A stretch of DNA of 64,000 nucleotides. Origin: Eledone cirrhosa. Lineage: Eukaryota. Each line of letters starts with the position of its first letter. The stretch's first letter is position 1. A program made the translations under genes and the position numbers. Shown here piece by piece: positions 14,405-59,383 of the stretch. Under the pieces are notes generated by a model. That model saw only the letters and a program-made list of their open reading frames with translations. It was not told the DNA's origin and made no database searches. The stretch spans positions 63,116,001-63,180,000 of the forward strand of contig OZ024747.1 of the NCBI GenBank assembly GCA_964016885.1, given 5' to 3'.

Positions 14405-14459
14405 AGCTGTTAGACCATTTACTCACCAGAGTACTCTATACTTGGTCTAGTAGAGTGGG

Positions 14460-14505
<46 letters not shown>

Positions 14506-36321: not shown

Positions 36322-36755
36322 TGCCCCCCCCCCCCATAAAAAAAATGTATACATACTTTGATTACCTATACAGGCAATATTTATTAAAATGCTGTTGAAG
36401 TATGTACACATTTTTTGCGGACACCCTGTATATATATATATATATATCATCATCATCATCATCATCATCGTTTAACGTCCATGTTCCACGCTTGCATGGG
36501 TTTGGACGGGAGTTTTACCACTTGAGGCAAGAGTGGTTGTCTTGCTCGCATAGGACTGTCTGGCGGGTTTTCTACAGCTGGATGCCTTTCCTAACACCAA
36601 CCACATTTACAGTGTGGCCATATATATATATGTAGGAGGTGAGTTTTATTGTAGCACAATAAAGCAATGTAAATCTCGGATAAGTAGCACTCAACAGTTT
36701 ATAGGACTGGAGTATAAATAATATAAAATCAAAAGATGGTTAAAAGAGTTCCATG

Positions 36756-36826
36756 TATTTTATTATGCGCATTTCAAAGACAAATATCATCATGGGATGA
36801 TATTTGCGTTCTCATCAGATAAAATA
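36756..36826 (-). ncRNA. Type I minimal hammerhead ribozyme
   Basis: Exact reverse complement of 36929-36999. Confidence 0.8.
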
Positions 36827-36928
36827 GGGAGACATGATATGAAGCTTAAAAACACTTGCGAGCAGTGAAGTGTTGATTTGACACTTCACTGCTCGCAAGT
36901 GTTTTTTAAGGTTCATATCATGTCTCCC

Positions 36929-36999
36929 TATTTTATCTGATGAGAACGCAAATATCATCCCATGATGATATTTGTCTTTGAAATGCGCATAATAAAATA
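36929..36999 (+). ncRNA. Type I minimal hammerhead ribozyme
   Basis: Stem I tattttat / ataaaata; CTGATGA 36937-43; stem II contains caaatatcatc-ccat-gatgatatttg; GAAA 36980-83; T-GCGC-A; triplet AUA, predicted cut after 36991. Confidence 0.8.
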
Positions 37000-38844
37000 C
37001 ATGGAACTCTTTTAACCATCTTTTGATTTTATATTATATATATATAATGTAAATGGCTACATTATTTACACCGTATCACTATGAAAGTAGTCTGACAGTA
37101 GCTCTGATTAGATACTGACATGGTCTACAATAACCTGTCTAACCCATGACAGCATGAACAAATGGACATTAAATGATAATTTTGATAATAATTGCAATAT
37201 AATCTATGTTAAATTAATTTTAGAAATCTAATTATTTCTGTCTCTATTCATATAACTGCATAGAATTAATACCGATAATATGTCTCGGGTTATTTATGAC
37301 TCTAAAATGCATAGGTCAAGTGTTTAGTTTATTACAAAACTACTTCCAGCAGTTTTATTTCCTAGGCACCAAACATATATTAATTATCTTTGCTATTGAT
37401 ATTATTTTAGCTTCTAATTAATAAGTGTGAAGAGCTACTAAACTGTGTTTTAATCAATATGAGGAGAACGTATGATTTTCTTTTCTTCCTTTTACTAACT
37501 TTTACTTTTTGGAAATCCAAATAAATTGATAAAACAAAATTCAACAATAAGATTAATGCTTTTTTCTGTATTTTATATTATTGATCAGTGCTTGAAAAGT
37601 GTATTTTATTATTGAAAAATAAAAATAAATAAATAAATAAGTAAGTAACTAAATAAATCATTATTTAATTATAAAAGAAAAAAAAAAATGCGATGATAAT
37701 GAAAGTTAAGATAATGATGGTGATAATGATTATATTATTGATAAGTTTGACAATAATAACAATAATGATGGAAATACCCTAGTTTCATAATTAGAATTGT
37801 ACTTTTTTTCTTTGCGTCCATCTATTTAGAAAGTAATGTTTGAAGTTAGATAGTTAATAATTGTGTAAGCCAGATCAAAATAACTGAACTTAGAAAAAAC
37901 CCCAGTGATATGCAGCCATCTTTTTTCTATTGATTATTTAACCATGCTAACTGTTTACTTTTATTTATTTCTGTAATGCTGATAATTAATGTTTAGATGG
38001 TTAGATGGTTTGATCTATAGTTATTAATGACCATTCAGTTCTATTTTTCTATATTTCAATATTTATTTACTTTGTAATCAGAAACATTCCATTTCATATA
38101 TGTTGCTATTAAGACCTTCAGTAACTGTTGTTATACTTCCCTTCTAAATGGTTTTATTCTTCTCTGCTAAAATGGAATATCTGAGGAAATGACTGGCAGG
38201 TCTTCATTAGGATGTAATTGAGATAAGCTGTTCCATTGAGTGTGTAGAATTTGTATTTTTTTCTTAATTTTCTTTTTTGTGGCATATATTTAAAAAACTT
38301 AATAAATTTTCATTGACCAGGGAATTTCTCTTAATTCTTGCTGATTTGATTATAATTACTACAAGTAATGACACTAAAGCTATCTCATTTGGAAAGTGTA
38401 GCTAAATAAAATACTCATATTTAGTATCATTGATGCTTGGTATATAAGGACTCGGAAGTTGCATACTAAAAACAAACACTATGCAGGCACAGTTTTGTAA
38501 TGCATATAGGAAATGTAAAGAAGTGGCAAATATATCAAGTGGATGAAACCTGCGAGTGAATAAAACCTAGAGGGACATGGGAAAAAAATTAAAGAAGATG
38601 GATATTAAATAGTTGAACCTCATGAAGGTGATGACAAAGGAACAAGATAAGTCGAAAAATACACAGCCAGTCCATGCAATCATGAAGAATGGATGCTAAG
38701 AAATATTCATATTAAGACTCTCTGTAAGCAAGCAGATTACTAATATTTATTGTAAACCATATCATTATTATTCGCACATTATAATTATAGTCTTAGATTT
38801 ATGTAGGCAAAACTGGAAGGTCATAGAACACCTTTAATCATAGT

Positions 38845-39056
38845 TGATTGGCAGTATTGGTAGAGCATCGGACAGCATGCTTTGCAGCATAGAGTTATGG
38901 CCCTTTATGTTCTGAATTCAAATCCCACCAAGGTTAGCTTTGCTTTTCATCCTTACTGGGTCAATGAAATAAAGTACCAGTCATGCACTGGGATCGATTT
39001 AATCAACTTCCCCTTGCCCTAAAATTGCTTGCCTTGTGCCTAAATCAGAAACCAAT
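38845..39056 (+). mobile_element. SINE family 1
   Basis: Full head, core and tail. Confidence 0.85.
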
Positions 39057-40233
39057 CATAGGTTTATTTGATCAGGGCTGATACGATGCTAGACAAATAC
39101 AACAACAACAACAACAACAAAAACAACAACAACTCTTACTCACTGAACATGTCGGCTATTCTCTTAATTCTTTCAGTTCCTTCTACCACTTCTAAATATC
39201 ACTTGTTATCAAGTCATTCACATATATTGATTTTAGATCAATGAATAAAAGGTAGAGTTGTTTGTTCATCACCAAGTAGTTTTCTTTCAACTCTCTCCAA
39301 TCAGGAAAAAATTCTCAACATTCTAACTGTATTCCAAACAACTCATCTTAGTTTATCTTGTCACAGCTTCTCTATAAATTTCATGGCAAGCTTGTCTCAA
39401 GTTTTGTTTGTTTCTTAGTCATTTCATTTTAATTTTCGTCTGAAAAATTAGTTTTTTCTTCCTTTATGTCTTCTGATTCTCTAATAAATAAATGTGTTTT
39501 ACTTGTTTTTAACACACACAGACAAACAAACACACACACACGTGTGTGTGTGTGTTTGTGTGAAACAGGCATTAAAAGCCATTTCTAAAACACTCAAACA
39601 TGAAATATGACTATGGAAAAAAATGACTATATACATCTACATAGTATTCTGAGTATATATTCTAAATCTATGGATTATTTTTTGAAGGAAAATCAATATT
39701 TCAATAAATAATATAATAAACGTTGTGATCAAGTATCTATACACAATATATATTAAACATTCAATCGTAATTTTAAAGTAAAATGTTCAATAAAATTTTA
39801 AAGTAAAATTAAAAGAAAACGACATTAAGAAATTTACATATATATCAGAATTAATTTTTAAAATAACTTTTAATAGCCAAACAAATTTCCAATATAAAGA
39901 TTAATAAGAATTTTTTCAGAAAACAAATAGCAAATAATTCAATGACAGTTAAACACACTTTCCTTTTTACTGCCATCAAATTTCTTGAGTTGTTAGTAAT
40001 TATTCCATTTCAACATATTTTATACGATAGTCATCTATTGATCTCAATAAATGTTATAAAGTTATTTTCACATCTTCGAATCATTTAACTCATCTCATTT
40101 CATTAATTGAAATCCATTAAATGATTTTTGCGGAAAATGGCATAAATGATGTTTTAGAATTGTAAATAATTAACAGAAATATCCCTTGTTGGACAGATTT
40201 CAGCTAATATATATATATATATATATATATATG

Positions 40234-40410
40234 TATTTAATATAGAAAAGCTTCTACAGGACTAGAACTGTTTCATTCAGAAGAAATCATCAGGGCTTCC
40301 TGATGATTTCTCCCGAATGAAACAGTTCTAGTCCTGTAGAAGCCTTTTCTATATTAAATATTTATACTCTGCTTTGTATTGAGTACCTTACTTACTGTAG
40401 TTACTCCAGA
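40234..40410. mobile_element. Fold-back element (palindrome 40234-40360 plus 3' extension) between (TA)n tracts
   Basis: tatttaatatagaaaagcttctacagg...cctgtagaagccttttctatattaaata. Confidence 0.7.
40292..40346 (+). ncRNA. Type I hammerhead ribozyme
   Basis: Stem I agggcttc / gaagcctt; CTGATGA 40300-06; short stem II ttc-tccc-gaa with U.U first pair; GAAA 40319-22; stem III CAG-ttctagtc-CTG; triplet GUA, predicted cut after 40338. Confidence 0.75.
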
Positions 40411-40426
40411 TTGAACCTGGGATGAA

Positions 40427-40488
<62 letters not shown>

Positions 40489-40821
40489 ATATATATACTG
40501 TAAATTGGTTGTGTAGAGTGGCACAACATGAAGCGCACACTGTAAATATGATTGGTGTTAGAAAAAGCATCTAGCCTTAAAAACCAAGCCAGAAACAGTT
40601 TTGTATGAGCATGACATAATCACCTGATCCGATTTGCCTCAAACAGGACAACTCGTCTAATCCATGCTATCATGGAAAATGTATGTTAAACGATAATGAT
40701 AAAAAATATATATATACACACTCACACCTGGTGCCTGGGTAGTGAATTGCTTAAGATGTGAAAATTACATTTTGGTCTGGATGGTATTGTGTAGTGGTAC
40801 AGATACAATTTGATCTTTCAC

Positions 40822-41050
40822 TTGGAGACTTCTGGTGTCCTTGGCCTTAAGATGACCTCCCTACTTACCATCATCGGTAAGGATTTGGCTACCCATAGGT
40901 GTGAGCCACGCAAACTGGAATGACTCTTCCAACACGTCTCCCTCACCCTCTTCCTGGGAAATGCCTTCTATATTCTGTCTACCAGGGTCATGTGGTCACC
41001 AGTGCCTGGGCTTCCATTTGCTTATAATAGTGAGAGATGGTGAGAGTGAA
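40822..41050 (+). mobile_element. CRE-clade LINE 3' fragment
   Basis: Homologous to 3090-3320 and 5356-5600. Confidence 0.7.
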
Positions 41051-41279
41051 AGAGAGAGAACCTCAACACTTATTTAGTTCATGAGTATTTTGAGTATGAG
41101 GAGGAATATGAAATAAATGCTGTGGAATATACTTATCGGGTTCCTACATAAAAGTTTGATAATTCGACATTGGGAGCATCTTATACCATGTGATATGTAT
41201 TTTTTTGTAGCTGACATATCAGTTGTAGAGAGAAACACCGACTGACTGTATGTTATATATATATATATATATATATATT

Positions 41280-41578
41280 ATGTTTTCTGATTTAGGCGCA
41301 AGGGAAGGGGTAAGTTGATTAGGATCCACCAGTGTATTACTGGTACTTTATTTTATTGACACTGTAAGGATGAAAGGCAAAGCTAACCTCGATGGGATTT
41401 GAAATCAGAATATAGAAGGCCTCAACAATATGCTGCAAATCATATTGTGTGATGCTCTAACGATGTTCTATATATAATATAATTGTTTCTACTTTTGGCA
41501 CAAGGACAGCAATTATCACAGTGTATTAATGGTACTTTATTTTATCGACCCCGTAAGGATGAAAGGCAAAGTTAACCT
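41280..41578 (-). mobile_element. Two adjacent SINE family 1 copies (41280-41465, 41481-41578)
   Basis: Reverse complement of the family 1 core. Confidence 0.8.
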
Positions 41579-43611
41579 CTCTCTCTATATATAATGATTT
41601 AACACAAGGCTCTGTTGACATTTATGGTTGTTGCTTTTTAACTCTTAGCATCCTGTTATGATTTGCAGAGAATGTATATAAGCAAGTTTTTTTTATAGTG
41701 TCTTTACCAGTGGACAGATCATTATACAAGTTTACAGTATTTGACTTATGACATAAATTTTTAATGTATTGTAGTTATTGTGCTGTTTTGTAGTTTTCAA
41801 TAATGCACGTCATGTGATACAGGAAATTAAGAGTTTGAGCAGTAAGGATAGCTTCAATAGAATAAACATTAACACAGGAATGCTACATATTTTATTGTTG
41901 TTGTTGTTTAGCCCCAGATATGTCCTGATCCAACAAATCTTTCATCAGAGGTATTCCAAACATGATCATCATTCTTTTCAGAAGTGTTTGTACATTATTA
42001 TCTAATGTGTTTGTTCCATTTCTAGTATGGTGGGGTGGAATTTGAGGGAGATTTGGCTGTTATTAAGTGACCATGTAGAGGCTTCTTTGTTGGTATGAAT
42101 TACTGTATATACGTATGCATATTACACTGGTGAATAAGTCACTCCGTCATCTTACACACAACATTTATTGGTTCCACTTATTTTGAATTGAAGCTTTGTA
42201 ATTCCAGCATATAGTGAGAGCAGGAGAGACGGTGGTAGTGGGAGTTTGGTTCCTTTGTGTTCGAACATGTATATATTTATTTACCAAGCCACATATGCAA
42301 CCATATTAGGTTGCTTTCCATTTCTATTTTTAAAACTAAACACAGAATTTATAGAACAATAACTAGATTCTGCAAAGTCATATGCTGTTTTTTAGGTTAT
42401 ATTTTCATGATGAAAAGAGAAAAGTCTACACATATTCCTACAATATATCTCATATTCCCCTGATATATATATAAAAATGAGCTTTGTTTAAAGTTATATC
42501 GATAGGATGACAGTGAGCATTATGATACTAAGAGATCTTTAATTAACACCTTTAGAAATTTAAAGTATTTATGATTTTATTACTTTATAAAGGTGTTCAA
42601 TACTTTGATACAGATGTTAAATTGTATTTACAGTAGTGCCTACACAGAATACTTTTTCTGTTGTGATTTATACATATGTTATTTATTTATTTTTGTTCCA
42701 TCAGTACATTAAGTGAAAATGTTCTAGTATTGAACATGATGGAATATATTAAATTAGGTGTTTTCTTTATTCAGTTAAATCTTCTTATGTTTAGCTAGAT
42801 GAAAAAAATAATACTTCTGTAATGGAGAAATGCTGCTTGTAGCTTGAAGAGTAAACAACTAGTAATTTAACACATTAAGCTGTCTTAAATAAATTACCTT
42901 TTTTGGCATGAAAACATTTTTTTAATGAGAAATAAAGAAACTATAAAATGTAATGAAAATAGTAAAGAAATAAAGAAAGAAAAGAAATTCAATATTTGAA
43001 AGCGTTCAGAAGGGAAAATTGTCCATCTTTGTGAAAGCAATATTGATGATGAAACTAAATTGACATAGATTGAATTAAAACAATTAAATTCCTTAGATCT
43101 AAACTCTGCTAGTACTTTTTACAAATCTTGATCAAAGTATTTTCTTCCTTACTCCTAAATCAACAACAACAACATCATCATTCTTCCTCACTGTTAATTT
43201 TTAAACTACAGTTTGCATGGAAAAAACATATGTACAAACATAAAAAAAACATGAAGCTTTTATTTATTTGTCTGATGTATGCCCACAGAGAGATACACAT
43301 TTACATACACACACATATATATCATAAAAGCATATATATATATACACACACACACTCTACATACATACACACATGCACATGATGGCTGCAACTCAATTTT
43401 GAGTAATGCCATTGCTTAAATATGAGCATCATGGACGTGGCTTTTTAGTTCTGCTGGGGACTTGCCTATGGCCAGCAATTCCATGCATCACAGGAAATGT
43501 CACGTATCAAGCGATGCCTGTGTTTGAAGCTTTATTAAGTGAGGAAAGGCTTGTGTGTATGTAGATTGTACACACAAGTGTAGTGAATGTTAGACACTGT
43601 TTTCTATAGTT

Positions 43612-44220
43612 TGTCATCACCTCTTCCCTCCTCAGTCATCTCTAGTGTATGACGTCATCACCCCTTCCTTCCTCAGTCATCTCTAGTGTATGACGTCATC
43701 ACCCCTTCCTTCCTCGTTCATCTCTAGTGTATGGCGTCATCACCCCTTCCTTCCTATATCATCTCTAGTGTGTGACGTCATCACCCCTTCCTTCCTCAGT
43801 CATCTCTAGTGTATGGCGTCATCACCCCTTCCTTCCTCAGTGTGTGACGTCATCACCCCTTCCTTCCTATATCATCTCTAGTGTGTGACGTCATCACCCC
43901 TTCCTTCCTATATCATCTCTAGTGTATGATATCAACACCCTTCCTTCCTCAATCATCTCTAGTGCGTGACGCCATTACTCCTTCCTTCCTCAGTCATCTC
44001 TAGTGCATGACGTCATCACCCCTTCCTTCCTATATCATCTCTAGTGTAGTGTATGATATCAACACCCCTTCCCTCCTCAGTCATCTCTAGTGTGTGACGC
44101 CATTACTCCTTCCTTCCTCAGTCATCTCTAGTGTGTGATATCATCACCCCTTCCTTCCTCAGTCATCTCTAGTGTGTGATATCATCACCCCTTCCTTCCT
44201 CAGTCATCTCTAGTGTGTGA
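43612..44220. repeat. 41-bp minisatellite, ~14 copies
   Basis: Unit cctcagtcatctctagtgtgtgacgtcatcaccccttcctt; followed by (GGAT)n and cactttatatatagat, a Helitron/HINE-like end. Confidence 0.92.
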
Positions 44221-44850
44221 TGGAAGGATGGATGGACGGATGGCTAGAAGCCGCTCACTTTATATATAGATGATTTCATAGAAAATATTTATTAAAACAA
44301 GGGTAACTGTTTTCACATCAAATACACCTGATTGCACATCACAGTAAGTTTGTATCTGGAATCTGTTGCTTTGACTATTAATAATGCCTAAATCGTTGAA
44401 GACACTTTTAATCTCAGATTCTGATTGCTTCTGTGAATGTCAGTTTAATTGAGATTATTGGTGAGAATATGACGGAAGAATTGCAAGAATTAACATTGCA
44501 TGCTCCATTTCTAAAAGAGAACTACCAACAAAATTGAACATGCCAAACCTGTCACTATAGTTTAGCTAATTTCCTCTGGAATTCATATTTCTAGCATTCC
44601 AATAGAAAAACCAATTAAATCTATGATAATCTTTTGGTAATAAAAGCTGTGGCAATAATTCTCTTATTACATACAAGATTGTGTAAAAGTCTTATGCTTC
44701 ATCAACTCCATTAACAGATATCTTTTTAGAAACTACTTTTGCATTATATCCAAGCAAATACAACACTTACCACGCAGAATGTTTCACAGTCATATTTTCC
44801 AAGAGATTATTTCAACACACATATCGCTTGCATGCACGCACACACACCCA

Positions 44851-44902
44851 GGCTTTCCTGATGATTTCTTTTGAATGGAACAGTTCTAGTCCTGTAGAAG
44901 CC
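44851..44902 (+). ncRNA. Mutated hammerhead ribozyme, same family as 40292-40346
   Basis: ggctttc CTGATGA tttcttttgaat GGAA CAG ttctagtc CTG TA gaagcc; GAAA changed to GGAA. Confidence 0.65.
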
Positions 44903-45372
44903 ATTTCTATATTAAACATGATATATATATAATCAAACCAATATCTAACTCCAATCTGGCACCAGCCACAGGATTCAACATTAACATAGAGTGCTTTTCT
45001 ACTATTACATCATGGTAAACTAAATGGAATGACCAGTTCTATCCTGTGGTGAACCACTAAACATAAATATATATATATATATACACATATGTGTGTGTGT
45101 CTGCCACAACAAATTGTACCCAACCCACTTTATAAAGTGGTAGTGCTTGTACCACGATAAAAGCACCCTGTCCACTCTGTCAGGTAGTAATGGCATTGTC
45201 ACAATAAAAATTCACCTGGTACATGCCATGAATTGAATGCCATTAGAGAACGATGCCATTCCCCAAATAGAGACAATCATCAAAATGGAATGTATGTCCT
45301 CAGAATATGACAACCTGTCTAATCTATGCAAGCATCGAAAGTAAACATAAAATAGTGGGGATATTATATATA

Positions 45373-45983
45373 TACTAGTAGAATGGCCTGGCGTTGCTCG
45401 GGATTTGCTCTAGAGTTCTTATATATTTGATATATATTTATCCTTATCGAGCCTCATGAAATAAATACGTTTGTTTATATTTTGTTATTGTGTATGCAAA
45501 AATATCTGTACACGAATATATAATTATATATATATATATATATTAAAATAACAGATTAAATTTTAAGCAAAGAATCGCTGCTTTCACCCTTAACAGGATC
45601 TTCTGAAACTAAAAATATCAATCTGTGAATGCAGAAGTAAATAATTCGAAAAACATTACACACTATATATATATATACACACACTATATATACATATACA
45701 CACACCGCATCATAATGTCGTAATGCAGACAGCCAGACATACAGACAGATATTATAAGGGCGCAACGTTGTATTTATGTATCTATCTAAAAAGAAAGACT
45801 AAAAATTATAGAGAGATCGCTAAATCGCCTAATGCTGTCCCTAGGACATTGAAAATTTGAAATTTTCTTTGCTCAAAACACTCACAGGACCACAAGTATT
45901 ACATGTGTACAGTTTGAAAACAATCGGTTGGGTGGTTCTCGAGTTTTAGGAAGTCAGACAGACAGACAGACATTCTCTGTTAT
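45373..45983 (+). mobile_element. Non-autonomous Helitron-like (Lep1/HINE-type) element
   Basis: 5' tactagtagaatggcctggcgttgctcggg; 3' tttgaaaacaatcggtt...(CAGA)n-cattctctgttata. Confidence 0.55.
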
Positions 45984-46218
45984 ACCAGTTTTACCAGTTT
46001 TAAATTAATAAGACCATTATTCAGCAGAGTACTTGTTACTTGGGATAGAAAAGTGGGGCCTTTCAGCTGAGCTCTCGCCATTTCGTCAGCAAATTCCAGT
46101 CTAGAATGGTCCATGACTTTTAATATATATATACAAAAAGTAAACAGATATAACAAAGCAAATGACACAGTATGATGAAGAAATATATTAGTTCAACGTT
46201 TGATATATATATATATAT

Positions 46219-46818: not shown

Positions 46819-46980
46819 TATCTACCACCTCTATAGAACCCACCTGCATTTGAAAAATGTGTCTTTATATATATATTTATATATATATATATATATATAT
46901 ATAACGAAGGAGTTGTGGTAAGGAAGCAGATGGACCATAACGCACCAGAGTACTCAATACTTAGGGTAGTAGAGTGGGTA

Positions 46981-47132
46981 AGAGGAAGTCCAAGGTTAAC
47001 GTATGTTGATGCCCTAAGGACAGACACTGGTCTGTTTGAGACGCGGGACATGGCAGCGATAATGAGGGACAGAGACCGCTGGAGAGAACTCGTCCATGGA
47101 TCTCAGGAATTTTACCCGCCTTAGATAGATAG
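46981..47132 (+). mobile_element. RTE/RTEX-like LINE extreme 3' end
   Basis: RGSPRLTYVDALRTDTGL...MRDRDRWRELV*, (TAGA)n tail; near-identical to 54811-54958. Confidence 0.8.
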
Positions 47133-47320
47133 ATATATATATATATATAAAATCAACTGAAAGAAATGGTGCATTTTCTTTTTCATATTAATTAAAAATA
47201 CTATATGCACTTTTTCCTATGAAATTGTAGTTAACTGGCTGATATTTTTTGCAGACAAGATGATATCCTACTAAAACATATGACCATATACTGTATAACA
47301 CACATCCAACAAATACTGAA

Positions 47321-47875: not shown

Positions 47876-49377
47876 AGGAAATAATAATAATAAAAGAAAC
47901 ATTTAAATTCTGATATTTTACTGACAGAAATTTTTTTATTTCATTCTATCATGGATGATTTGTGTTTGTTTTAGCTCTATTTGAATTGAATTTTATTAAG
48001 ATTGTTTAAAACTTATTTCAACATCATTTCAACTTTTATGTGTTTTTTTTTAGCAATATTTTGTACTAAATCATAATATATAATATATTTTCTAGTTTAT
48101 ATAAAGTCATTTTAGTTTTCATCATTACATTTATTGCCAAGGAACGATGATTATATTACATTGAAATAAAACATATAAACCATTGCTTTTTAAGTCTTTT
48201 GTTGATTATTTTTAGAAACTTACTTCACACTAAGATAGTGACAATAAACTTGTCAATCATGTAGAAATAAAATATATTTTTTTATAACTTTTCTAATAAA
48301 ACTTTTTGTTAATGTAGATTTGTACATTTATTACAGGTCTATATTTTCCTAAAGTTTGTAACTCAACACATTTCACTGTTGTTCCGATGAAAAAACACAG
48401 TCAATTTATTCTTCATTATCATCATCATGTAATATCTACTTTTACATTTTGAAATGTGTTGGACTGGTTGTTACAGTCCAACTCAGTAGTTAATTAATGT
48501 TTCAGTGAGAGACCTCATCTCACTACAGACATTCTTGTTTTAGTATGGGTTCTACATCTAGATGCCTTTCCTATCCTAAACTAACAGACTGTACTGGGTG
48601 CATTTTATCTTTGTTTTGTTATTGTTATTTTTGTATGGTCGTAAGTTGTTTAGGTTTAACCTTTTTTTTACCATATTTCTAATGAAAGATCTGTCTATAA
48701 GGCTCAAACCATTAAAATGATAATCAAGAATATAATGAACATACAATGTTGTCTCTGATCGAGATGAAACAAGAGTGTATTTGGATACATTATATGTAAT
48801 CAAGAATATAATCAATTTTTTCATTATTAAACTGATGTTTAAATATAAACTTAACAAAGGTTCTTACATAAAATTATCATGGAAGGTTTTAGATAAAGAT
48901 ACAAATTAGTATGTCCATTTCAGAATAATACTATGAGTGAACAGTTATATAAGCCCATCAAATATGTATTTCCTTGTGGTTGTTTGAATGATATTCATGC
49001 CTTCTGATGAGGGCCCAACTAGGTTAAAAAACCAATTAAAAGTGTTTATCATCTTTTTCAATTTACAGGATAAATTTTAAATGCCTACATATTAAAAATG
49101 TGTATTTATATAAACATTGGTCTCAGTTACACACTCTGTATGTATACAGATATAACTTTATATATATATAAGTGTGTGTGTGTGTAAATATGTATATATA
49201 CCTACATATATATATATATATATACACATATATATATACACATATATACATGTATATGCCAGAGACACTTCTGTGCAAGAGAGAGACACGGTCTCTCGAC
49301 CATTCCCATATCAAAGGGAACAAAAACTTCTAACCCATGCTAGCGTGGAAGATGGACGTTAAATGATGATGATGATG

Positions 49378-49413
<36 letters not shown>

Positions 49414-49457
49414 GATATATTTACTTGTTGTATCCCAACAATTTTAAATAGAACTTT

Positions 49458-49515
<58 letters not shown>

Positions 49516-49673
49516 CATGTGTGTGTATGAAGGCTTTTACACTTTCAACTCATTCTGTTATCTAATTTGAGATATCTTAATAGGAATCAGTTTTGATGCA
49601 GTGAAATTAGTCAAATACAAGATATTTGTGATTTCTGTATTGATTATATTTAAAACAAATCTGTTTCCAGTTC

Positions 49674-50671
49674 AAACAACAACAAAACCAACCCCAACAA
49701 CAACAACAAAATAATAACCCCAAACAACCCCGGACAACAACAAAAACAACAACCTCCACAACAAAAACAGCCTCCACAACAATAACAAAAACAACAACCC
49801 CCAACAACAACAAAAACAATCCTCACAATAATACCCCCACCCACACACACAAACAACAAAAACAACAACCCCCACAACAAAAACAACCCCAATGAAAAAC
49901 ACAAAAATCATCAACCCCTAACCCCCCCAACCAACCCAAACCACAACCCCCAAACACCAACTCCCAACAACCCCCAACCCCAACACCCCCCAAACCAACC
50001 CTAACAACAACCCCAACAACCCCAACCACAACCCCAACTACAACCCCAACCACAACCCCTAAACACCAACACCCAAACAACCCCCAAACTCTAACCCCCC
50101 ATAACAACCCCAACCACAACCCCCAAACACCAACCCCCAAACACTAACTCCATAACAACCCAACCACAACCCCTAAACACCCACCCCCAAACAACCTCCA
50201 AACACTAACCCCATAACAACCCCAACCACAACCCTCAAACACCAACCCCCAAACACTAACCCCATAACAACCCCAACCATAACTCCCAAACACCAACCCC
50301 AAACACTAACCCCTTAACAACCCCAACCACAACCCCCAAACACCAATCCCCCAAACACTAACCCCCCATAACAGCTCCAGCCACAACCCTCAAACACTAA
50401 CCCCCCCATAACAACCCCAACCACAAGCCCTAAACACCAACCCCCAAACAAGCCCCAAACACTAACCCCATATAACAACCCCAACCACAAGCCCTAAACA
50501 CCAACCCCCAAACAAGCCCCAAACACTAACCCCATATAACAACCCCAAGCACAAGCCCTAAACACCAACCCCCAAACACTAACCCCATATAACAACCCCA
50601 ACGACAAGCCCTAAACACCAACCCCCAAACAAGCCCCAAACACTAACCCCATATAACAACCCCAACAACAA
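49674..50671. repeat. C/A-rich low-complexity tract grading into ~50-62-bp tandem units
   Basis: ccccatataacaaccccaaccacaagccctaaacaccaacccccaaacaagccccaaacactaa repeated at the right end. Confidence 0.9.
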
Positions 50672-51129
50672 TATAGTTTTATGTTTCTGTGTTACTGTCT
50701 GTGGTATAGTATATGTCTTTTATGCTCATTTGTTTTTAATATCCTCTTAATAGAAACCTCCTAAAATAGCATTTGTAAGTGAAACATTATCATAGTCTTT
50801 CCATTGCAGTCAATTTTCTATTTAGCCAACAAGAAAATCCGCAATATTCTGCAATATATTCTGCCCTGTCTTTTGTTTAGAATTGGTTGATGTAATTCTG
50901 ATCAATTCATTGCAAATGTTTAATAAATTGTTCCCTATAACACTAGCTTGAAACTATTATATCTTATTTTCATCTCTTTCTCTCCTTTCACCTCATTCTT
51001 TTCAATGTCACTGTAAAATGTTAATAGAATATTTGGCAAACTCACTTTCTCTTTATCTCTCTTTCTTTCCCCCCCCCCCCTCTCTCTCTCTCTCTCACTT
51101 ATTATTTCTTTCTATACTGCAATGTTATT

Positions 51130-51176
51130 ATATGTGTGTTTGTCTGCATGCATATACATATGTGTTTGTGTGTGTG

Positions 51177-51259
<83 letters not shown>

Positions 51260-51554
51260 GTGTGTGTGTGTCTGTGTGTGTCTGTATATGTAGGTATATA
51301 TGTGTGTGTGTGTCTGTATATGTAGGTATATATGTGTATGTGTGTCTGTATATGTACGTATATATGTGTATGTGTGTCTGTATATGTACGTATATATGTG
51401 TATGTCTGTCTGTATATGTACGTATATATATATGTGTGCATATATGTGTGTATATATATTTATATGTATTTATGTGTATATGTATGTATATATATATGTA
51501 TGTATATGTATGTATATATATATATGTATGTATGTATATATGTATGTATATATG

Positions 51555-51601
<47 letters not shown>

Positions 51602-51673
51602 GTATGTATATTTGTATATGTATGTATATTTTTATATGTGTATATGTATGTATATGTGTATATATATATATAT
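51130..51673. repeat. Compound (TA)n/(TG)n/(TATG)n microsatellite
   Basis: Directly visible; explains overlapping spurious ORFs. Confidence 0.95.
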
Positions 51674-52462
51674 CACGTGATTTGTTATTGCAGATGTGTT
51701 GTTTGAGGCAATGTTAGATAAATAGAAATGGAAACAAAAGCAAATTGATGTAGGAAATGGAATGAGACGAAAAAAAGGTGACTAAGTAGAGAATATATTG
51801 TGTGTGTGTGTGAGTCTCTGTGAGTGTCTGTTTGTGTATGTGTGTCTATGTTTGTATGTGTCTGTGTTTGTATTTATCTAGAATCTCAAACACAATTTCT
51901 TAACTAATCACCCCAAAATAATCTCAATATGTGAGAGTGCTATATCAATTTCAATGTGAATGTGTTTTATCTCCATTAATTTCTTTAAATAGAAACCTAT
52001 TAAACTTTCACATGTACAGCAATTTCAAAGTGAGGTTCATTTTATTTCTAAAATGTAATAATCTTTGCTTGCAGGAAAAATGGGTGTTAAATGATTAAAC
52101 AATTATACTGGTCCGATCATCACCATCATCACGTCTGCTTTCTATACTGGCATGTATTGGAGGTGTTATTACAGTTCAATTCAGTTCTGTTTCAGGGTTA
52201 TGTGTCTAGATTGGTTAGGGGCCCCATGTCTGCTCATACATTTGAATTTTTGCACTATCTAACAGCAACTATTTTACATTGTGTACAAGGTATATTTTAT
52301 AACTGCACCCACACTAAAGAGATTGTTATGTCCTTGGCAAGAATAAAGACCCCTCGCTACACTACATTGTCTCTTCTCATTTGCTAACTACTTTCCAGAA
52401 TACATTGTATCTATTTTAAAGTAACACCAACACTAGAAATGATGTTGAAACTGTTGCATTGC

Positions 52463-52675
52463 ATTGACAGTATCGGTACTGCGTCAGACACGATCCTTTT
52501 CAACATAGAGTTATGGCCCTTTACATTCTGAGTTCAAATCCCGCCAAGGTTAACTTTCTGTTCATCCTTATGGAGTCAATAAAATAAAATAACACTAATG
52601 CACCGGGGTTGATTTAATTGACGCCCCCCCCCCCCTCAAATTGCTGGACTTGTGCCTAAATTTGAAACTATTATT
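52463..52675 (+). mobile_element. SINE family 1
   Basis: gagttcaaatcccgccaaggttaacttt core. Confidence 0.8.
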
Positions 52676-54077
52676 TGTGTGTATTAACTTTTGTGTATTA
52701 ATAGTACTCATTTTGACTCAAGATTTCCAGATACATTTCTATTTCACAGAGTAGTATTATATCCTGAGTTAAGCCCAACATATAATGTTACTTAGTTACA
52801 AATTCAAATCATTAATTTAGCATGAGTCTAAGAAATAATGAGATATTCCGGCTTTCCTAGAATAGGGTTTTGATGTAGTTAAATATTTAGATTGATTTTA
52901 GCTTCATGGCTGTTGAGAAGATGTGGGCTGGGAGAATTTTTCAAAGAATGGAAAACAAAGTTAAATTGAAAATATCAAACAGTTGGGTGTCAGGATATGA
53001 CATTTTTTAACCTTGTGTATTATATAAAGATTTTCATATATGAATTATGTTTTGAAAGTATTGTGATGATATTACAAAAAATGTAAATGTCTAAAATCCC
53101 AAACAATGCATGTAATGAAATAAAAGCTAATGTTTTATTCAAAATTTTCAGTCTTGGAATACTTTCATCAGAGAATCAGTATTACAGAAATGTTTTAGTG
53201 TTACAATTCATTGAAAATTCTGAATAATACATTAGGTTTTATTTCTTTACCCACATTGTTTGGGCTTTTAATAATTTAAAATTTTCATAGGTTTTTTTTT
53301 AATGTTTGTTCCTTATATCACTTAAAACTTAGTCCATAAAATATCAAAACCTAAAATGCAGTGCCCATAACATTTTAGGACCATTTAAATAGTAAAGCTG
53401 AGTTTGTTTAATTTGAATATCTGAAAAGAATTTGTTATTTTTACTGTTTAACCTGGAAAGGAAGTTCAGTGTCCATGATAACATTTGGGGCCACTCAGGC
53501 TGGGGGATGGGAAGTTATCCTCAAACTAGAGATCTAGTCAAAATACTTGCAAAAGAGTGAGAGAATTCTGCTAAATACAACAAAGGACCTGGTAGTGAAA
53601 CTAACAGGGTTGATGATTAATTTGAACCTCTGCAGCTTGATATTTGTAGATGAGGTTAGGGAGAATGTTACAGTGGACTGTAATTATAGGAAGAGGAGAT
53701 TTATGTAAGAGTTTAGTACTGAGGTTAAGGGGGTCGATCTCAGTTTGAATGATGAGAGGAGCAGTGATCATCACCATCATCACCATTGTTTAACATCCAT
53801 TTTCCATGCTTGCATGGGTCCACGTCATGAGACAAGTCTGGCCAGATTGGCCACACCACACCTTGCTCAGACAGAACTATAAATTTGACTGGGATTTCTA
53901 CAGCTAGATGCCCATCCTAACACCAACCACATTAACAATGTGGAACTGGTAAGCACATCAAATGATTTTGGCTGATGGGCTACACAGTTTGTTAGTTTGG
54001 AAGACAGAAGCTATTGTAATATTGATAGAGGACACAGGCAGAAGACATATGTTAATGTTTGAGTGATTGTAGTCCAC

Positions 54078-54334
54078 TTAACTCTTTAATGTCCTGTACC
54101 CCATGGAATCACATTTAGCATTTACATTACTCTATATTTACTATTGTATTTCTGCAGTAAAGGCTTTATCTTACATAATTATCTCCCATAATATCGAATC
54201 TATGAGATTTCGATATTATTTATTTTGAGAATAATACCTTAACGTCAGTATGAGCAGCCAGTTACAGGTGGTTTGAACACAAAGGGGTGAGAGAATTCTG
54301 GCCAGATATGGCTGTTTAAATACTAAAGGGTTAA
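54078..54334. mobile_element. TTAA-flanked MITE
   Basis: ttaactcttt...aaagggttaa; homologous to 10997-11212. Confidence 0.7.
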
Positions 54335-54782
54335 CAAGACATTCTTGAAAAGTACAAAACAGCACTATGACTGCATCACATTAACAATCAAAGTTCATTC
54401 TAATTATACATCATCACCATCACCACCACCACCACCATCGAGATAATCTCTCTTCCTTTCCCTTTTCTTGCCAATACTACATCATCATCATCATCACAAC
54501 CACCGTCACCACTCACCACCACCACCACCACCATCACCACCATCACCATCAAGATCATCTCTCTTCCTTTCACTTTTCTCATCAATTCTCATCTGCTTTA
54601 TTTTAGTTTACTGCAAATGTTCACAAAGTTTTGTCTACTCATAAAGATATAAACTTTTGTATTAACAGACCTGTTTTTAAATATTATCTGCGAAATCACT
54701 GTAGGATGTTATGAGTTCATTAAAATTATGGACCATGTAGCTATCTTGTCTATATGAAACACAAAAATTAAAACTGTGTAAT

Positions 54783-54966
54783 GTGGGAGCCCCTACATGG
54801 ACACACTGGAAGAGGAAGACCAAGGTTAACGTATGTTGATGCCCTAAGGACAGACACTGGTCTGTTGGAGACGCAGGACATGGCAGCAATAATGAGGGAC
54901 AGAGACCGCTGGAGAGAACTTCTCCATGGATCTCGGGAATTTTACCCGCCCTAGATAGAGAGAGAG
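54783..54966 (+). mobile_element. RTE/RTEX-like LINE 3' end
   Basis: WEPLHGHTGRGRPRLTYVDALRTDTGL...RDRWREL. Confidence 0.8.
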
Positions 54967-55048
54967 ATGTGTGGTTTCTGAATTAAATTGATATCACAAA
55001 AAACTTCGCTGTTCTCTTCTTTTAGGATGAAATATGATTTAAGACCAT

Positions 55049-55398
55049 GGAGGCAATGGCTTAGTGGTTAGAACATTGGTCTTGCAATCGAAAGGTTGCG
55101 AGTTCAATTCTCAGACCGGGTGATGTGTTGTTTCCTTGAGCAAGACACTTTATTTCACATTGCTCCAGTTTACTCAGCTATAGAAATGAGATGATAGGGA
55201 CTGGGGTCCATATCATTCCACTGCAAAGTGGACGTGTAGGTACCATGGCAAAAAAGCACCCAGCACTCACTGTAAATGAGGTTAGTGTTAGGAAGGGCAT
55301 CCAGCTGTAGAAATCAAGCCAAAATCAGTTTCCGTCCCACCCTTGCAAGCAGGGAAAAAGCAGACATAAAATTAAATGATGAAAATGATGATGATGAT
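55049..55398 (+). mobile_element. SINE family 2, full length
   Basis: Near-identical to 15428-15772. Confidence 0.9.
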
Positions 55399-55539
55399 CT
55401 GGTTTTACAGGTGGAATAATCAAATAAAGAATTACAGATTTTGTTGGAAGTATTATGAGGATTGGATCAAACGATTAGACCACAGATGACATTTCTAACT
55501 GGTTAATATGTTTAGAGAAATAAATAAATTATTATATAC

Positions 55540-55945
55540 ACGTGTGTACTGGTATGTGTGTGTATGTATGTGTGTATGTATGTGTGTATATACGTATATG
55601 TGTAATTATATATGTAGGTGTGTGTGTATTTGTGTGATGTATGTCTGTTTGTATGTATGTATGCATATGTGTTTGTATGTGCATATATACGTATGTATGT
55701 GTGTGTATTTGTGTGATGTATATCTGTTTGTGTGTATGTATGCATATGTGTTTGTGTGTGAGAGTCTATATTTGTATGTATATGTGTTTGTGTTTATGGA
55801 TGCGTATGTGTTTTTATCTATTTGTGTGTATGCCTGCGTATGTATTTGTATATGTTTGTGTGTATATTTGTATGTTTATATGTTTGCATGTGTTTATGAT
55901 TTATGTGTATGTGTGTTAATATTGGTATATTTATGTGTATGTGGC
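55540..55945. repeat. Degenerate (TG/TATG)n tract
   Basis: Directly visible. Confidence 0.9.
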
Positions 55946-56891
55946 TTATATATTACATTTTCTACTTTGCTAACTAATAACTTTAGTAAAGATATAAAGT
56001 TGGAAGATAAGATTTATATTTGCTTATTTTCTGTTTGTTTTTGTTCTTTCCCCATTTGACTTGTCTGAGTTAAATCAATAATTTGAATATATTGGAGAGA
56101 GTAAAAAGTAAAGACTTATTGAAATTTTTCAGATCAAATGGAAAGGTTAAAGCGTGAAACATTTGCTACAGAACATTTCCATCAATCAATTAAATTTATT
56201 ATTATTTTTTTTTCACAAACTTCCGAGATGAGCATTAAAAAAAAAATAACAATTTTATAAATTCTTCAAAAACAGCAAATAACTGCTATCTGTAATAGTA
56301 AATAAATATTATTTAAAGAAATAAACCAGAATTAAAATGTGCAGAAAAAACAATTTTTTAGTATTGAAATGTCACATTATTTATAAAATAGATAATACCT
56401 ATATTTTATATATATATGTTTGCCAATCCAATATTAAATACAAAACAGAAACGGTACTTGTTAAAGGTAAATATTTTGATGACAAATTTTAAAATGACAT
56501 CAATAGAAAAAAATGTTGTTTAGACAAACAAGTAGGAAAGATGATATCACTAATTAGATAAAAACTGCTTTTATTTATTTATGTATCTATCTATATTTTT
56601 ATTTAATTAATTTCAACATCCATGTAGAGCTAGTAAGCCATGACAATTTAACAGAGGTATCTCCATGTAATTAAGAAGCAATAACAAAAGAGATACAAAG
56701 AGAGAAAATAGAAAAGAAAGAGAATGACAACAGAAAGCAAAAGAAATATAAATGATTAAAAGGTGAAAAACAAAGACAACTTATAAAGCAACTAACATTT
56801 TCTGTTCTTGAATCCTTTCATGGCCTCCATACACTTGTTTATAGAAGGTATATCCTTGACAATATATTACACCTCCAATCTTGGTAAATTT

Positions 56892-57110
56892 TTACCCCTT
56901 TAGCATTTAAATCGGCTGTATCTGACCAGAATTCTTTCACTTCTTTCTGTTCAAACTGGTCGAAACTGGCCACTCATATTGATGTTTAAGTATTGTTCTC
57001 AAAATAAATAACATCAAAATCTCTTATATGTGAGATAATTATGTGAGGTAAAGCCTTTACTGTGATAATACAATAGCAACTATAGAGTAATGTTGATGGT
57101 AAAGGGTTAA
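56892..57110. mobile_element. TTAA-flanked MITE
   Basis: cccctttagcatttaaa...taaagggttaa. Confidence 0.7.
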
Positions 57111-58482
57111 AGACCAGGTTCAAGATATCATCGCTCTCAGACTGGGAACATTTTACATTGGAATTGTAAAAGTCACAATATGGTTCCCTGATCAGTTTAG
57201 TCTTGTACAATAATGATGATGATATATATGCGACAGGCTTTTGCACAGTTTCTGATTACAAAAGCATACCTGAATTTGCAGCTGCAGTATAAGATATTTG
57301 CCACAAGGGCCAAGCAATGGGGGATCAAACCTGAAACTATATAGCTTCAAAGTGAACATTTTAACCACACAACCATACCTTTGCCTAAATTATTAACAAA
57401 AAACCCAACTGAGATATCTAATATAAAAACTGAACTAAATGAAACATGACATAATATTTCAGTGAAACTAATATCTATGAAATGAATAATTAGATTGATA
57501 AAAAAGAACTCTAATCAACTGAAATGTCCCAAACTGAATCAGCCATGTTATCTGTAGTCAGGAATTTTAGTCTCTTGAGGATTATGTTAATGGATATTGA
57601 TATAAAAATGTCAGAAAAACTAATGAATTATTTAAAAACTGGATAGAGGACTAACTAATTTAGCTCTACTAATTTACTCAAGTTGTTACATGCTTCCAGT
57701 GTATATGAATATAAAGAGTAATTAGCTCGTTAACCTTAATTACTAATGCCAGGTTAAATTAGTAGCAATTGCGAGAGAGAGATTTATAAAATTATGATTG
57801 GTATCATTTATGCTTTGGTTCTTGTTTTGTTGTTGTTGTTTTTTTTTCCAACTTTTTTCAATTTCATTTCAAATTGAAAGTTTGTGAACTGGAATATATA
57901 TCTCTCTCTCTATAACTCTTACTTTGTATCTTTCTTTTTGTCTTTCTCTTTTTCTCTGCCTGTCTCCCCCCCCCTCTCTCGTACTCTCTCTCCCCCTTTC
58001 TCTTCATATCTCTCTCTCTCCTTCTCTCTCTCTTGCACATTGTTCTTTCTCTCCATCTTTCTCTCCTTATCTTTCTCTCCTCCCTTGCACATTGTTTTGC
58101 CTAATTCATCATTCATTTAACAAACACACACAGATACCGCACACGAAAATAATACACACGTGCATCACAAAGACACACACATGCACCACGAATATACATA
58201 CATAGCACAAAAAATACATCAGTACCACACCCACACACATACACACACACACACACACAAACCAACCAACCAACCAAGATGTCGTTTTTCTTGTTTTCAT
58301 TATCACGGTATTAAATATGCTGTCATATGTTTGTACGCAATAAAATATCTGATACAATCAAACAACAAACTTGTAAATTTATTCAAGCTATATAAACTGT
58401 AATATATTGTATAGACATACAATATTACACAATATTAATAGTTTAGTTAATATGAAGTAAAGTTAATATTTAGTTAATATGT

Positions 58483-58817
58483 GGAGGCACATGGCTTAGT
58501 GGTTAGAGCATTGGGCTTGCAATCGAAAGTTCAATTCTCAGACCGGTTGATGTGTTGTTTCCTTGAGCAAGACACTTTATTTCACATTGCTCCAGTTTAC
58601 TCAGCTGTAGAAATGAGATGAGAGGGACTGGGGTCCCTATCATTCCACTGCAAAGTGGTCATGGAGGTGCCACGGCAAAAAAGCACCCAGCACTCACTGT
58701 AAATGAGGTTGGTGTTAGGATGGGCATCCAGCTGTAGAAATCAAGCCAGAATCAGTTCCCGTCCCACCCTTGCAAGCAGGGATAAGTGGACGTAAAAATG
58801 AAATGAAAGGAAATGAT
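58483..58817 (+). mobile_element. SINE family 2, full length
   Basis: Near-identical to 15428-15772, with a small deletion before the B-box. Confidence 0.9.
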
Positions 58818-58949
58818 ACAAAGGTTATATTTAATTTGTTGGAATTCAACAAACTTAAAAGTTTTATAACTGATATAAAGCACTCAACAGATAGTGGAGT
58901 AAATATTAATTATATTAATAAATGGAAACTATATTTATAAAGCCATAAT

Positions 58950-59015
58950 TATTTTATTATATATATTTCAAGGGCAACCAAGGCAAATTTTGATGTGCTT
59001 TCATCAGATAAAATA
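58950..59015 (-). ncRNA. Type I minimal hammerhead ribozyme
   Basis: Minus strand: tattttat CTGATGA aagcacatcaaaatttgccttggttgccctt GAAA T-ATAT-A TA ataaaata. Confidence 0.72.
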
Positions 59016-59097
59016 CAAAATTTGTTTTATCCAGCGAACCTCCAACTGTCAAGGTTGTTCTTCTGCGGGTATGTCACCATTTATAAAACACATTTTG

Positions 59098-59163
59098 TAT
59101 TTTATCTGATGAAAGCGCACCAAAATTTGCCTTGGTTGCCTTTGAAATATATATAATAAAATA
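59098..59163 (+). ncRNA. Type I minimal hammerhead ribozyme
   Basis: tattttat CTGATGA(59106-12) aagcgcaccaa..ttggttgccttt GAAA(59144-47) T-ATAT-A TA ataaaata; predicted cut after 59155. Confidence 0.75.
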
Positions 59164-59200
59164 ATTATAGTTTTATGAATATAGTTTCCATTTATTAATA

Positions 59201-59383
59201 TAATTGTTTCTACTTTAGGCACAAGGCCAGCAATTACCCAGTACATTACTGGTACTTTATTTTATCGACCCCGTAAGGATGAAAGGTAAAGTTAACCTCG
59301 GCGGGATTTGAACTCAGACTGTAAAGGGACGTAACTATGCTAGAAAGCATGGCGTCCAACCCTCTACCGATACTGCCAATTCA
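59201..59383 (-). mobile_element. SINE family 1 (young copy)
   Basis: Reverse complement of 15865-16050. Confidence 0.9.

Follow-up and report, generated by a model that had tools for sequence, protein, structure and literature searches.

Tail motif shared by short repeats in the window

The window analysed here is a 64,000-nt stretch of the Eledone cirrhosa genome (assembly GCA_964016885.1, contig OZ024747.1, forward-strand positions 63,116,001 to 63,180,000), and it contains a series of short repeats that share a hairpin in their tails. According to location, the repeats were named family A (0.3, 14.7 and 46.9 kb), family B (40.3 kb), family C (36.8 kb) and family D (59.0 kb). A previous sequence-only reading had connected them through an actc...gagt motif located 3' of hammerhead ribozymes, on the longer arm of each fold-back. 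The motif was recovered as an exact match at 40359-40387 (+) and 36720-36686 (-), and the third copy was found at 58907-58879 (-), one base off the previously given boundary of 58906. In family A, the corresponding 28-nt string occupied positions 286-313 (-), 14688-14715 (+, one mismatch) and 46948-46975 (-).

Coordinates of the inverted arms agreed with the longer arm on one side: in three fold-backs the motif lies just outside the arm and on a single side only. Fold-back carriers were confirmed at 36.8, 40.3 and 59.0 kb, while the 46.9-kb copy turned out to be a tail-only fragment beside a 5'-truncated long interspersed nuclear element (LINE). Similarly, the location 3' of a ribozyme held for families B, C and D and failed for family A, which has no CUGANGA...GAAA core.

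The motif was strongly overrepresented. Within the window, the pattern ACTCN{6,22}TTGAGTRC matched six times versus 0.17 matches expected, and none of 100 dinucleotide shuffles yielded six or more. In a contiguous, unselected 264 kb, comprising the window and 100 kb on each side, a looser version of the motif gave 13 matches compared with a mean of 0.97 (maximum 3) over 30 shuffles. The suggested association with TA repeats was evident in the same 264 kb, where (TA)5+ was present at most 140 nt downstream of 10 of the 13 copies versus 13.5% of random positions. A hammerhead core was located no more than 260 nt upstream in 4/13 copies, compared with 1.4% of random positions; conversely, the motif followed within 160 nt in 4 of the 32 matches to the hammerhead core regular expression, most of these 32 being chance matches.

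As had been proposed, the motif joins repeat families that are otherwise unrelated. Their common denominator is the tail hairpin together with TA targeting, and not the hammerhead that the same reading had taken as the common thread, as the core was missing from all 30 copies of family A.

Structure and covariation of the hairpin

Across all lineages, the module follows the consensus RCUC-NNN-loop(3-44 nt)-N'N'N'-2 nt bulge-GAGY-RC. The inner stem varies by lineage: it is UAC/GUA in family A, UGC/GUA in family B, CAG/CUG in families C and D, CAA/UUG in a relative of family D and CGU/ACG in one long-loop lineage. In the autonomous elements described below, it is UGU/ACA or UGU/AUA in the main family and CAG/UUG in the second lineage. 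The outermost pair is A-U, G-C or G.U depending on lineage. The inner 3-bp stem and the outermost pair covary among lineages, and these compensatory changes uphold the conserved hairpin postulated from the window sequence. G.U pairing on the sense strand speaks for a structure formed by RNA, or at least by the sense strand.

A covariance model (CM), designated R1, was built from six short-loop lineages only, since MAFFT was unable to align hairpins of differing loop length. On the 264 kb, R1 gave 18 matches at E ≤ 1, corresponding to 16 distinct rows; 96.2% of the cells were paired versus 12-54% when the partners were slid, and changes on both sides were observed in three of seven pairs. On 360 kb of Penelope-like element (PLE) loci, 28 matches and 22 distinct rows were obtained, with 98.7% of the cells paired versus 9-51% in slid alignments and changes on both sides in four of seven pairs. 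In each alignment the covariation score was reached by 0/500 shuffles, counts that should not be taken as probabilities.

Copies, anatomy and ends of families A-D

All four families are high-copy interspersed non-coding repeats. Genome-wide first-look searches, in which candidate numbers are lower bounds and not copy numbers, returned at least 4,046 candidates for family A (scored copies 85-90% identical), at least 2,367 for family B (93-96%), at least 1,608 for family C (93-97%) and at least 3,841 for family D (84-95%).

Alignment of 30 copies per family revealed a common anatomy consisting of (TA)n, left arm, right arm, a short AT-rich tract, hairpin 1, a further 40-70 nt and (TA)n. The 40-70 nt beyond hairpin 1 often contain a second, family-specific hairpin. 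Two termini can be distinguished: T1, the outer end of the left arm, and T2, the far end of the tail. In all four families, the left arm ends 5-12 nt before the point where hairpin 1 starts on the right arm, whereas T2 abuts (TA)n at a distance of 40-70 nt from the hairpin module. (TA)4+ was present at the left ends of 25, 26, 28 and 25 of 30 copies in families A, B, C and D, respectively, and at the right ends of 25, 26, 29 and 18 of 30; the low right-end value for family D is explained by a cut that ran past the element.

The head-to-head junction is constant in family B, with 21 of 26 scored copies at one distance and the remaining five within one base. Its position differs among copies in families A and C, according to palindrome-centre analysis, and in family D, for which variability was taken from the copy alignment, palindrome-centre analysis being mostly unusable there owing to indels. 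Such variable junctions indicate that many fold-backs arose independently from a longer monomer. The window also holds two tail-only, 5'-truncated fragments (Table 1). The one-sided tail, the variable junctions and the tail-only fragments characterise retroposition starting from the tail end and are not features of DNA transposons.

Table 1. Hairpin-bearing elements and an adjoining repeat in the window (MFE, minimum free energy fold)
Feature	Position	Strand	Evidence or remark
Family A element: perfect long hairpin without hammerhead core, plus tail	236..432	-	
Family A arms	319-365/386-432		
Family A hairpin 1, ACUC-UAC-UACCCUAA-GUA-UU-GAGU-AC	288..313	-	pattern match, CM R1, tail fold
Diverged A-type element (A2)	14563..14757	+	arms 14580-14619/14621-14660
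A2 hairpin	14688-14713	+	CM R1 25.2 bits
Tail-only 5'-truncated A-type fragment abutting (TA)n	14427..14460	-	CM R1 20.2 bits, E 0.18
Tail-only A-type fragment	46895..46979	-	hairpin 46950-46975; ends in (TA)n 46864-46893
Family B element: fold-back with tail, flanked by (TA)n at either end	40236..40428	+	ends from copy alignments
Family B arms	40246-40294/40299-40347		
Family B hammerhead motif	40294..40344	+	sequence reading
Family B hairpin 1, ACUC-UGC-UUU-GUA-UU-GAGU-AC, inner-stem G.U pair	40366..40386	+	CM R1 36.3 bits
Family C element: fold-back plus one-sided tail, TA-repeat flanks	36631..37042	-	413 nt match genomic copies
Family C arms	36713-36852/36903-37042		140 nt, 99% complementary
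Family C minimal type I hammerhead motif	36756..36826	-	sequence reading
Family C hairpin 1, ACUC-CAG-loop-CUG-UU-GAGU-GC	36687..36713	-	CM R1 21.7 bits; in tail MFE
Family D element: fold-back plus tail; other repeat replaces (TA)n at tail end; copies match query positions 4-395	58816..59207	-	
Family D arms	58908-59030/59083-59205		94% complementary
Family D hammerhead motif	58950..59016	-	sequence reading
Family D hairpin 1, CAC instead of usual CAG, one inner pair lost	58880..58900	-	CM R1 32.0 bits
Piece of GGTGTTAGGAAGGGCATCCAGCTGTAGAA-core repeat	about 36580-36640	-	
Piece of GGTGTTAGGAAGGGCATCCAGCTGTAGAA-core repeat	40508-40590	+	
Piece of GGTGTTAGGAAGGGCATCCAGCTGTAGAA-core repeat	58700-58815	+	+ strand copy
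Piece of GGTGTTAGGAAGGGCATCCAGCTGTAGAA-core repeat	560-620	-	

Hammerhead motifs

By sequence reading, the components of a minimal type I hammerhead are present in families B, C and D, correctly ordered: helix I strand, CUGAUGA, helix II, GAAA, helix III, UA cleavage site and the second helix I strand. Helix III comprises 2-4 bp and is closed by a palindromic loop, which is GCGC, AUAU or CUAG-containing. In family C, helix I is formed by UAUUUUAU/AUAAAAUA, with CUGAUGA, a long helix II, GAAA and a 2-bp helix III closed by GCGC, and the predicted cut falls after AUA, between 36764 and 36763. Family B combines helix I GGCUUC/GAAGCC with CUGAUGA, a weak helix II, GAAA and helix III ACAG/CUGU; cleavage is predicted after GUA, between 40338 and 40339. 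In family D, CUGAUGA was found at 59007-59001 and GAAA at 58969-58966, followed by helix III with an AUAU loop and the helix I strand AUAAAAUA.

The core regular expression was kept in 22/30 copies of family B, 26/30 of family C and 29/30 of family D, as well as in both autonomous lineages. Family A, in which the regular expression matched none of the 30 copies, is a plain long hairpin. When segments were folded in isolation, the MFE structure formed helices I and II only for family C and the main autonomous family; for families B and D and the second autonomous lineage it was not a hammerhead fold. Rfam searches detected no hammerhead family on the whole window, either at gathering score or at E ≤ 10, and no hammerhead at E ≤ 10 on six short loci holding the elements.

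Autonomous elements with the same hairpin

According to the available text of Craig et al. 2021, Hydra-clade PLEs are short, always hammerhead-bearing and (TA)n-targeting, and occur in molluscs including Octopus bimaculoides (PMC8557442). A genome search with the GIY-YIG domain (PF01541) as a source of autonomous partners returned at least 10,597 candidates; the 20 long open reading frame (ORF) loci examined were other PLEs with a C-terminal endonuclease (EN). No same-strand tail motif was present downstream of the ORF at these 20 loci, so they are not the partners. One PF01541 locus held, by chance, a Hydra-like reverse transcriptase (RT) fragment, which was then used as query and produced at least 24,129 first-look candidates, with many 714-aa open frames and many head-to-head pairs.

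At the 16 loci examined, the layout was an ORF followed by a ~2-kb TG/TA-rich 3' untranslated region (UTR) with an internal hammerhead. The 3' end of the main autonomous family consists of a terminal hammerhead (CUGAGGA...GAAACCACUGGUA|, the bar marking the predicted cut), 45 nt, a AUAAUAAU tract, the hairpin GCUC-UGU-UGCUU-ACA-UA-GAGC-AC, 40 nt and (TA)n. That the motif also occurs in RT-encoding PLEs of the same genome, the comparison suggested by the earlier reading, would be expected of a signal recognised by the mobilising RT. The 714-aa ORF (L240:1553-3694, +) contains RLINPAKSE, FDIVDFYPSI and GLYRDDGLA, and its C-terminal part reads VVYEAK...RYVGMT...FKTRFYSH. A second ...GAGCACUCU motif was observed within the 5' leader of the following unit (L240:1480-1530, +), ~100 nt downstream from hairpin 1.

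Thirty-three terminal hammerheads had enough flanking sequence for their continuation to be followed. Thirteen continue across the hairpin to the 5' end of a following unit, forming a pseudo-long terminal repeat (pseudo-LTR, pLTR) junction, nine stop at T2, and 11 stop at T1, in the AU tract just before the hairpin. Both termini of the fold-backs are thus found again in the autonomous element, as its alternative 3' ends.

A second, more decayed autonomous lineage (L265, L266 and L213) carries fragments of the Hydra ORF. It has a 5' fold-back with a C/D-type hammerhead (...GAAAUAUGUAUA|AUAAAAUA) and the C/D-type hairpin GCUC-CAG-GAAU-UUG-UU-GAGU-GC, separated from (TA)n by at least 45 nt. Family D resembles this lineage in the 5' hammerhead region as well as in the 3' tail: blastn identity was 60.8% over 334 nt in the 5' part and 74.6% over 71 nt in the tail, under permissive scoring and small search spaces and among the listed non-repeat rows only. 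Judging from these sequences, families C and D look like internally deleted derivatives of the second autonomous lineage.

Occurrence in published Hydra consensi

The module was searched for in six published consensi from File S7 of Craig et al. 2021 (PMC8557442) and was clear in four of them. The 3' end of Hydra-2_Amil (coral) reads ...HHR...GCUC-UAC-loop-GUA-UU-GAGC-ACU, where HHR is the hammerhead ribozyme, and Hydra-2_Ajap (sea cucumber) contains ...GCUC-UGC-loop-GCA-UA-GAGC-ACU. Hydra-1_Ajap starts with GCUC-UGU-loop-ACA-UA-GAGC-ACUCU, after which the same design occurs a second time, while Hydra-1_Crog (sea louse) has GCUC-CAG-loop-CUG-AG-GUGC-AC with one mismatch. A weaker version of the module occurs in Hydra-1_Amil. 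The restriction of the group to cephalopods, as first suggested, is contradicted by the same module in coral, sea cucumber and sea louse.

Two further hairpins were noted in published consensi. At the 5' start of Hydra-1_Ajap, the second GAGCACUCU-type motif forms the hairpin GCUC-CUGAC-CA-GUCAG-UC-GAGC, of the same design. The 3' UTR of the Naiad_Mmer (clam) consensus contains a single internal look-alike, GCUC-UGU-loop-GCA-UU-GAGU-AC, ~450 nt before its end. This look-alike may be due to chance, and we make no claim for Naiads, which also target (TA)n.

Other features of the window

The sequence upstream of the 46.9-kb motif was identified as an unrelated 5'-truncated LINE with a (TAGA)n(TA)n tail. 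The 3' end of this young LINE adjoins the tail-only fragment at 46980-47125 (+), with (TAGA)n(TA)n at 47122-47151. The LINE yielded at least 1,991 first-look candidates, its copies are 97-98% identical, and its ORF terminates in ...DRDRWRELVHGSQEFYPP followed by the stop. Copies are 5'-truncated at many different points, and the family likewise sits in TA repeats. Another abundant repeat, with the core ...GGTGTTAGGAAGGGCATCCAGCTGTAGAA..., directly adjoins TA arrays holding the hairpin elements (Table 1), which indicates that several unrelated retroposon families accumulate in the same TA repeats.

Of the 25 listed window ORFs with a length of 110 aa or more, 17 were scanned with Pfam and showed neither RT nor GIY-YIG; the eight outside the scan lie in TG/TA-rich stretches (13198-13563 and the 51-kb cluster). 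At 27577-28303 (-), three overlapping ORFs gave the same weak match to the C-terminal end of the Ribonuclease-III-like family PF14622 (20-22 bits, below cut-off), which suggests a tandemly repeated fragment. MicroRNA (miRNA)-like Rfam matches were rejected as TG/TA microsatellites or the long fold-backs themselves; the sub-threshold mir-297/mir-466 matches at 13440-13540, 49160-49260, 51170-51680 and 62700-64000 correspond to TG/TA microsatellites, not miRNA genes.

Proposed function of the hairpin and alternative explanations

For the hairpin, a putative role in template recognition and priming is considered likely. With moderate confidence, we propose that the bulged hairpin common to the 3' ends of Hydra-clade PLEs and to at least four non-coding (TA)n families is an RNA template-recognition signal for the Hydra RT/EN, which would place the start of copying at one of two flanking AU-rich sites.

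In this scheme, the element RNA would hold the hairpin between two AU-rich tracts. The endonuclease would cut a (TA)n target, and the TA ends would anneal to one or the other tract, corresponding to T1 or T2; the RT, held by the hairpin, would begin synthesis at the annealed tract. A start at T2 would copy the hairpin into the insertion, and a start at T1 would omit it. Two cDNAs synthesised from both sides of the break and joined head to head at variable 5' points would produce a fold-back with a one-sided tail, while synthesis that reaches the 5' end of a first RNA and carries on at the 3' end of a second would produce the pseudo-LTR junction. Non-coding RNAs that keep the tail module could be copied in trans by Hydra RTs, with a hammerhead (families B, C and D) or without one (family A).

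A broader version is put forward tentatively, as possible rather than probable: the hairpin would be the template-recognition element of Hydra-clade RTs, kept since before the cnidarian/bilaterian split, and copying would start at either flanking AU-rich site, primed by the two (TA)n ends of one break. If true, a single rule would cover three hallmarks of PLE insertions, namely the one-sided tail, the inverted 5'-truncated partner copy and TA-repeat targeting, and would also account for the trans mobilisation of non-coding repeats in the hundreds of thousands, whether they bear a hammerhead or not.

Several observations weigh against template recognition by the hairpin. The hairpin is small and appears in the MFE structure of five of seven tails, folding z-scores are weak (-0.3 to -2.6, with one at +1.3), and one inner pair is missing, uncompensated, from the window copy of family D. 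Pairs were counted in alignments fitted to the model, in which many rows represent related copies; the covariation counts therefore exceed the number of independent events. T1 ends sit in AT-rich sequence beside (TA)n, with boundaries fuzzy by a few bases, and some of them could be products of subsequent slippage of the microsatellite or of recombination. Among the autonomous loci examined, none carried a hairpin of the A or B type that would make it a partner of these families, and the hairpin is absent from the published Hydra-1_Obim consensus; this consensus ends at an AT tract 30 nt past the hammerhead, which looks like a T1-type end. Placement in the Hydra clade relies on motifs and on the N-terminus read by eye against the published Hydra-1_Obim protein, and the 714-aa autonomous ORF matched no Pfam family at E ≤ 0.1.

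The weak thermodynamic support would also fit a relic of descent, that is, one ancestral Hydra tail whose hairpin has no present function. The families are clearly one retroelement group and their copies decay neutrally after insertion, as illustrated by the window copy with an uncompensated stem change. Nevertheless, we regard a relic as unlikely: the sequence around the hairpin has diverged past alignment between families while the hairpin shape has been kept, changes on both sides affect three to four of seven pairs, the module persists in consensi of cnidarians, echinoderms and crustaceans and in this genome, and its position between two discrete termini has been maintained.

To the same low degree of probability, the hairpin might act as DNA, serving as a recognition site for the GIY-YIG endonuclease or taking part in second-strand synthesis or in resolving the insertion intermediate, rather than in RNA recognition. 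The available text of Craig et al. 2021 ascribes the one-sided tail to endonuclease-mediated resolution of an intermediate (PMC8557442), and the hairpin lies inside that tail, between the two termini. However, every sense-strand G.U pair is an A.C mismatch on the antisense strand, which favours sense-strand RNA, although a sense-strand DNA hairpin is compatible too. Such pairs occur in the inner stem of family B, in the outer and inner pairs of the second lineage and, within the main autonomous family, in its AUA variants.

A second or rearranged hammerhead, with ACUC/GAGU as helix III and a cut after GAGUA, was also considered. Helix III of published Hydra hammerheads is exactly ACUC-N-GAGU in Hydra-1_aJap (File S2, PMC8557442, in the part available), GAAACUCGGAGUA in Hydra-2_Amil and GAAACUCCGAGUA in Hydra-2_Ajap, and the tail motif is followed by A/G-C, as at a cleavage site. 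This origin is nonetheless very improbable, given that no family has GAA before ACUC, the sequence there being AU-rich or CCC, that CUGANGA is missing from family A (0/30), that in the autonomous family G-C takes the place of the A15.1-U16.1 pair, which is invariant in hammerheads, and that an inner stem with a 2-nt bulge is foreign to hammerheads.

Fold-back DNA transposons of the miniature inverted-repeat transposable element (MITE) type with TA target duplications, in which the motif would be a chance match or a subterminal transposase site, are scarcely credible despite the long near-perfect inverted repeats with TA-rich flanks: in place of the symmetric terminal inverted repeats without a 5'-truncated series that characterise MITEs, the ends are asymmetric with a tail on a single side, tail-only 5'-truncated copies exist, the inner junction varies among copies, the tail module is common to RT-encoding elements, and the motif count is far above chance.

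Significance

An in vitro system is named as the next task for PLE work in the available text of Craig et al. 2021 (PMC8557442). A hairpin of 21-35 nt would supply a concrete, mutable cis element for PLE template choice, tails, pseudo-LTRs and inverted copies. As a candidate it is covarying, common to autonomous and non-coding families, kept across phyla and flanked on each side by a discrete terminus. Together with (TA)n, the tail hairpin provides a simple rule for filing repeats with their Hydra partners, hammerhead-free families included. Hairpin-bearing short repeats are probably present among the 'unclassified SINEs' (short interspersed nuclear elements) of octopus genomes; a 2026 paper on O. 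vulgaris repeats reports 893 unclassified SINE families, covering 11.6% of the genome, and mentions neither hammerheads nor Hydra. In the autonomous ORF, RT and GIY-YIG-like motifs are visible by eye, yet no Pfam family is matched, and Pfam-based annotation would miss this clade.

Comparison with known systems

No description of the tail hairpin was encountered among the entries listed in searches of the literature on PLEs, pLTRs, retrozymes and cephalopod PLEs, a coverage that excluded most subscription journals. The words hairpin and stem-loop do not occur in the main text of Craig et al. 2021, and neither these nor secondary structure occur in the supplement, as far as both are available (PMC8557442).

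The elements described here resemble the Hydra clade of the same source (PMC8557442, available parts) in (TA)n insertion, minimal hammerhead motifs (except in family A), tandem and inverted forms and a one-sided tail, and the autonomous elements, read by eye, also look like short single-ORF elements with an RT followed by a GIY-YIG-like domain. In contrast to our data, the available parts of that source contain no description of non-coding Hydra derivatives (PMC8557442). The abundant autonomous family of E. cirrhosa further differs in its ~2-kb microsatellite-rich 3' UTR and in the hairpin, which is missing from the published Hydra-1_Obim consensus. The available text also reports a one-sided tail of 30-40 bp in PLE insertions, which, like the tail described here, is a one-sided extension beyond the repeat unit at the insertion end (PMC8557442). 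Unlike the PLE tail, the tail in E. cirrhosa measures 70-100 nt, includes a structured module that is conserved, and is bounded on its inner side by T1, which is an alternative terminus in its own right.

Metazoan non-LTR retrozymes were reportedly described by Cervera and de la Pena in 2020. They are small non-coding hammerhead repeats, seen as non-autonomous derivatives of PLE pLTRs in the available part of a 2026 preprint by Li, Clavereau and Pollet (10.64898/2026.07.22.740005). Families B-D of the window are likewise small non-coding repeats with a hammerhead motif. Retrozymes are, however, defined by tandem arrays and circular RNA, whereas those in the window are solitary head-to-head fold-backs bearing a tail on one side, among which tandem head-to-tail units of the retrozyme kind were not encountered. 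Also unlike retrozymes, one of the families has no hammerhead core, and the unifying feature is the tail hairpin.

A putative functional parallel is the stringent LINE/SINE pair of eel, UnaL2 and UnaSINE1, which share a 3' stem-loop; according to the available text, the UnaL2 hairpin is required for mobilisation (PMC1636434). The enzyme differs, being a presumed PLE RT with a GIY-YIG EN here and a LINE RT with an apurinic/apyrimidinic (AP)-like EN in UnaL2, and the E. cirrhosa elements also differ in the two termini flanking the hairpin and in the inverted double copies. As in the eel pair, in the part of that source available (PMC1636434), the 3' hairpin common to autonomous and non-autonomous elements is short, contains an internal loop or bulge, and precedes a tail of short repeats.

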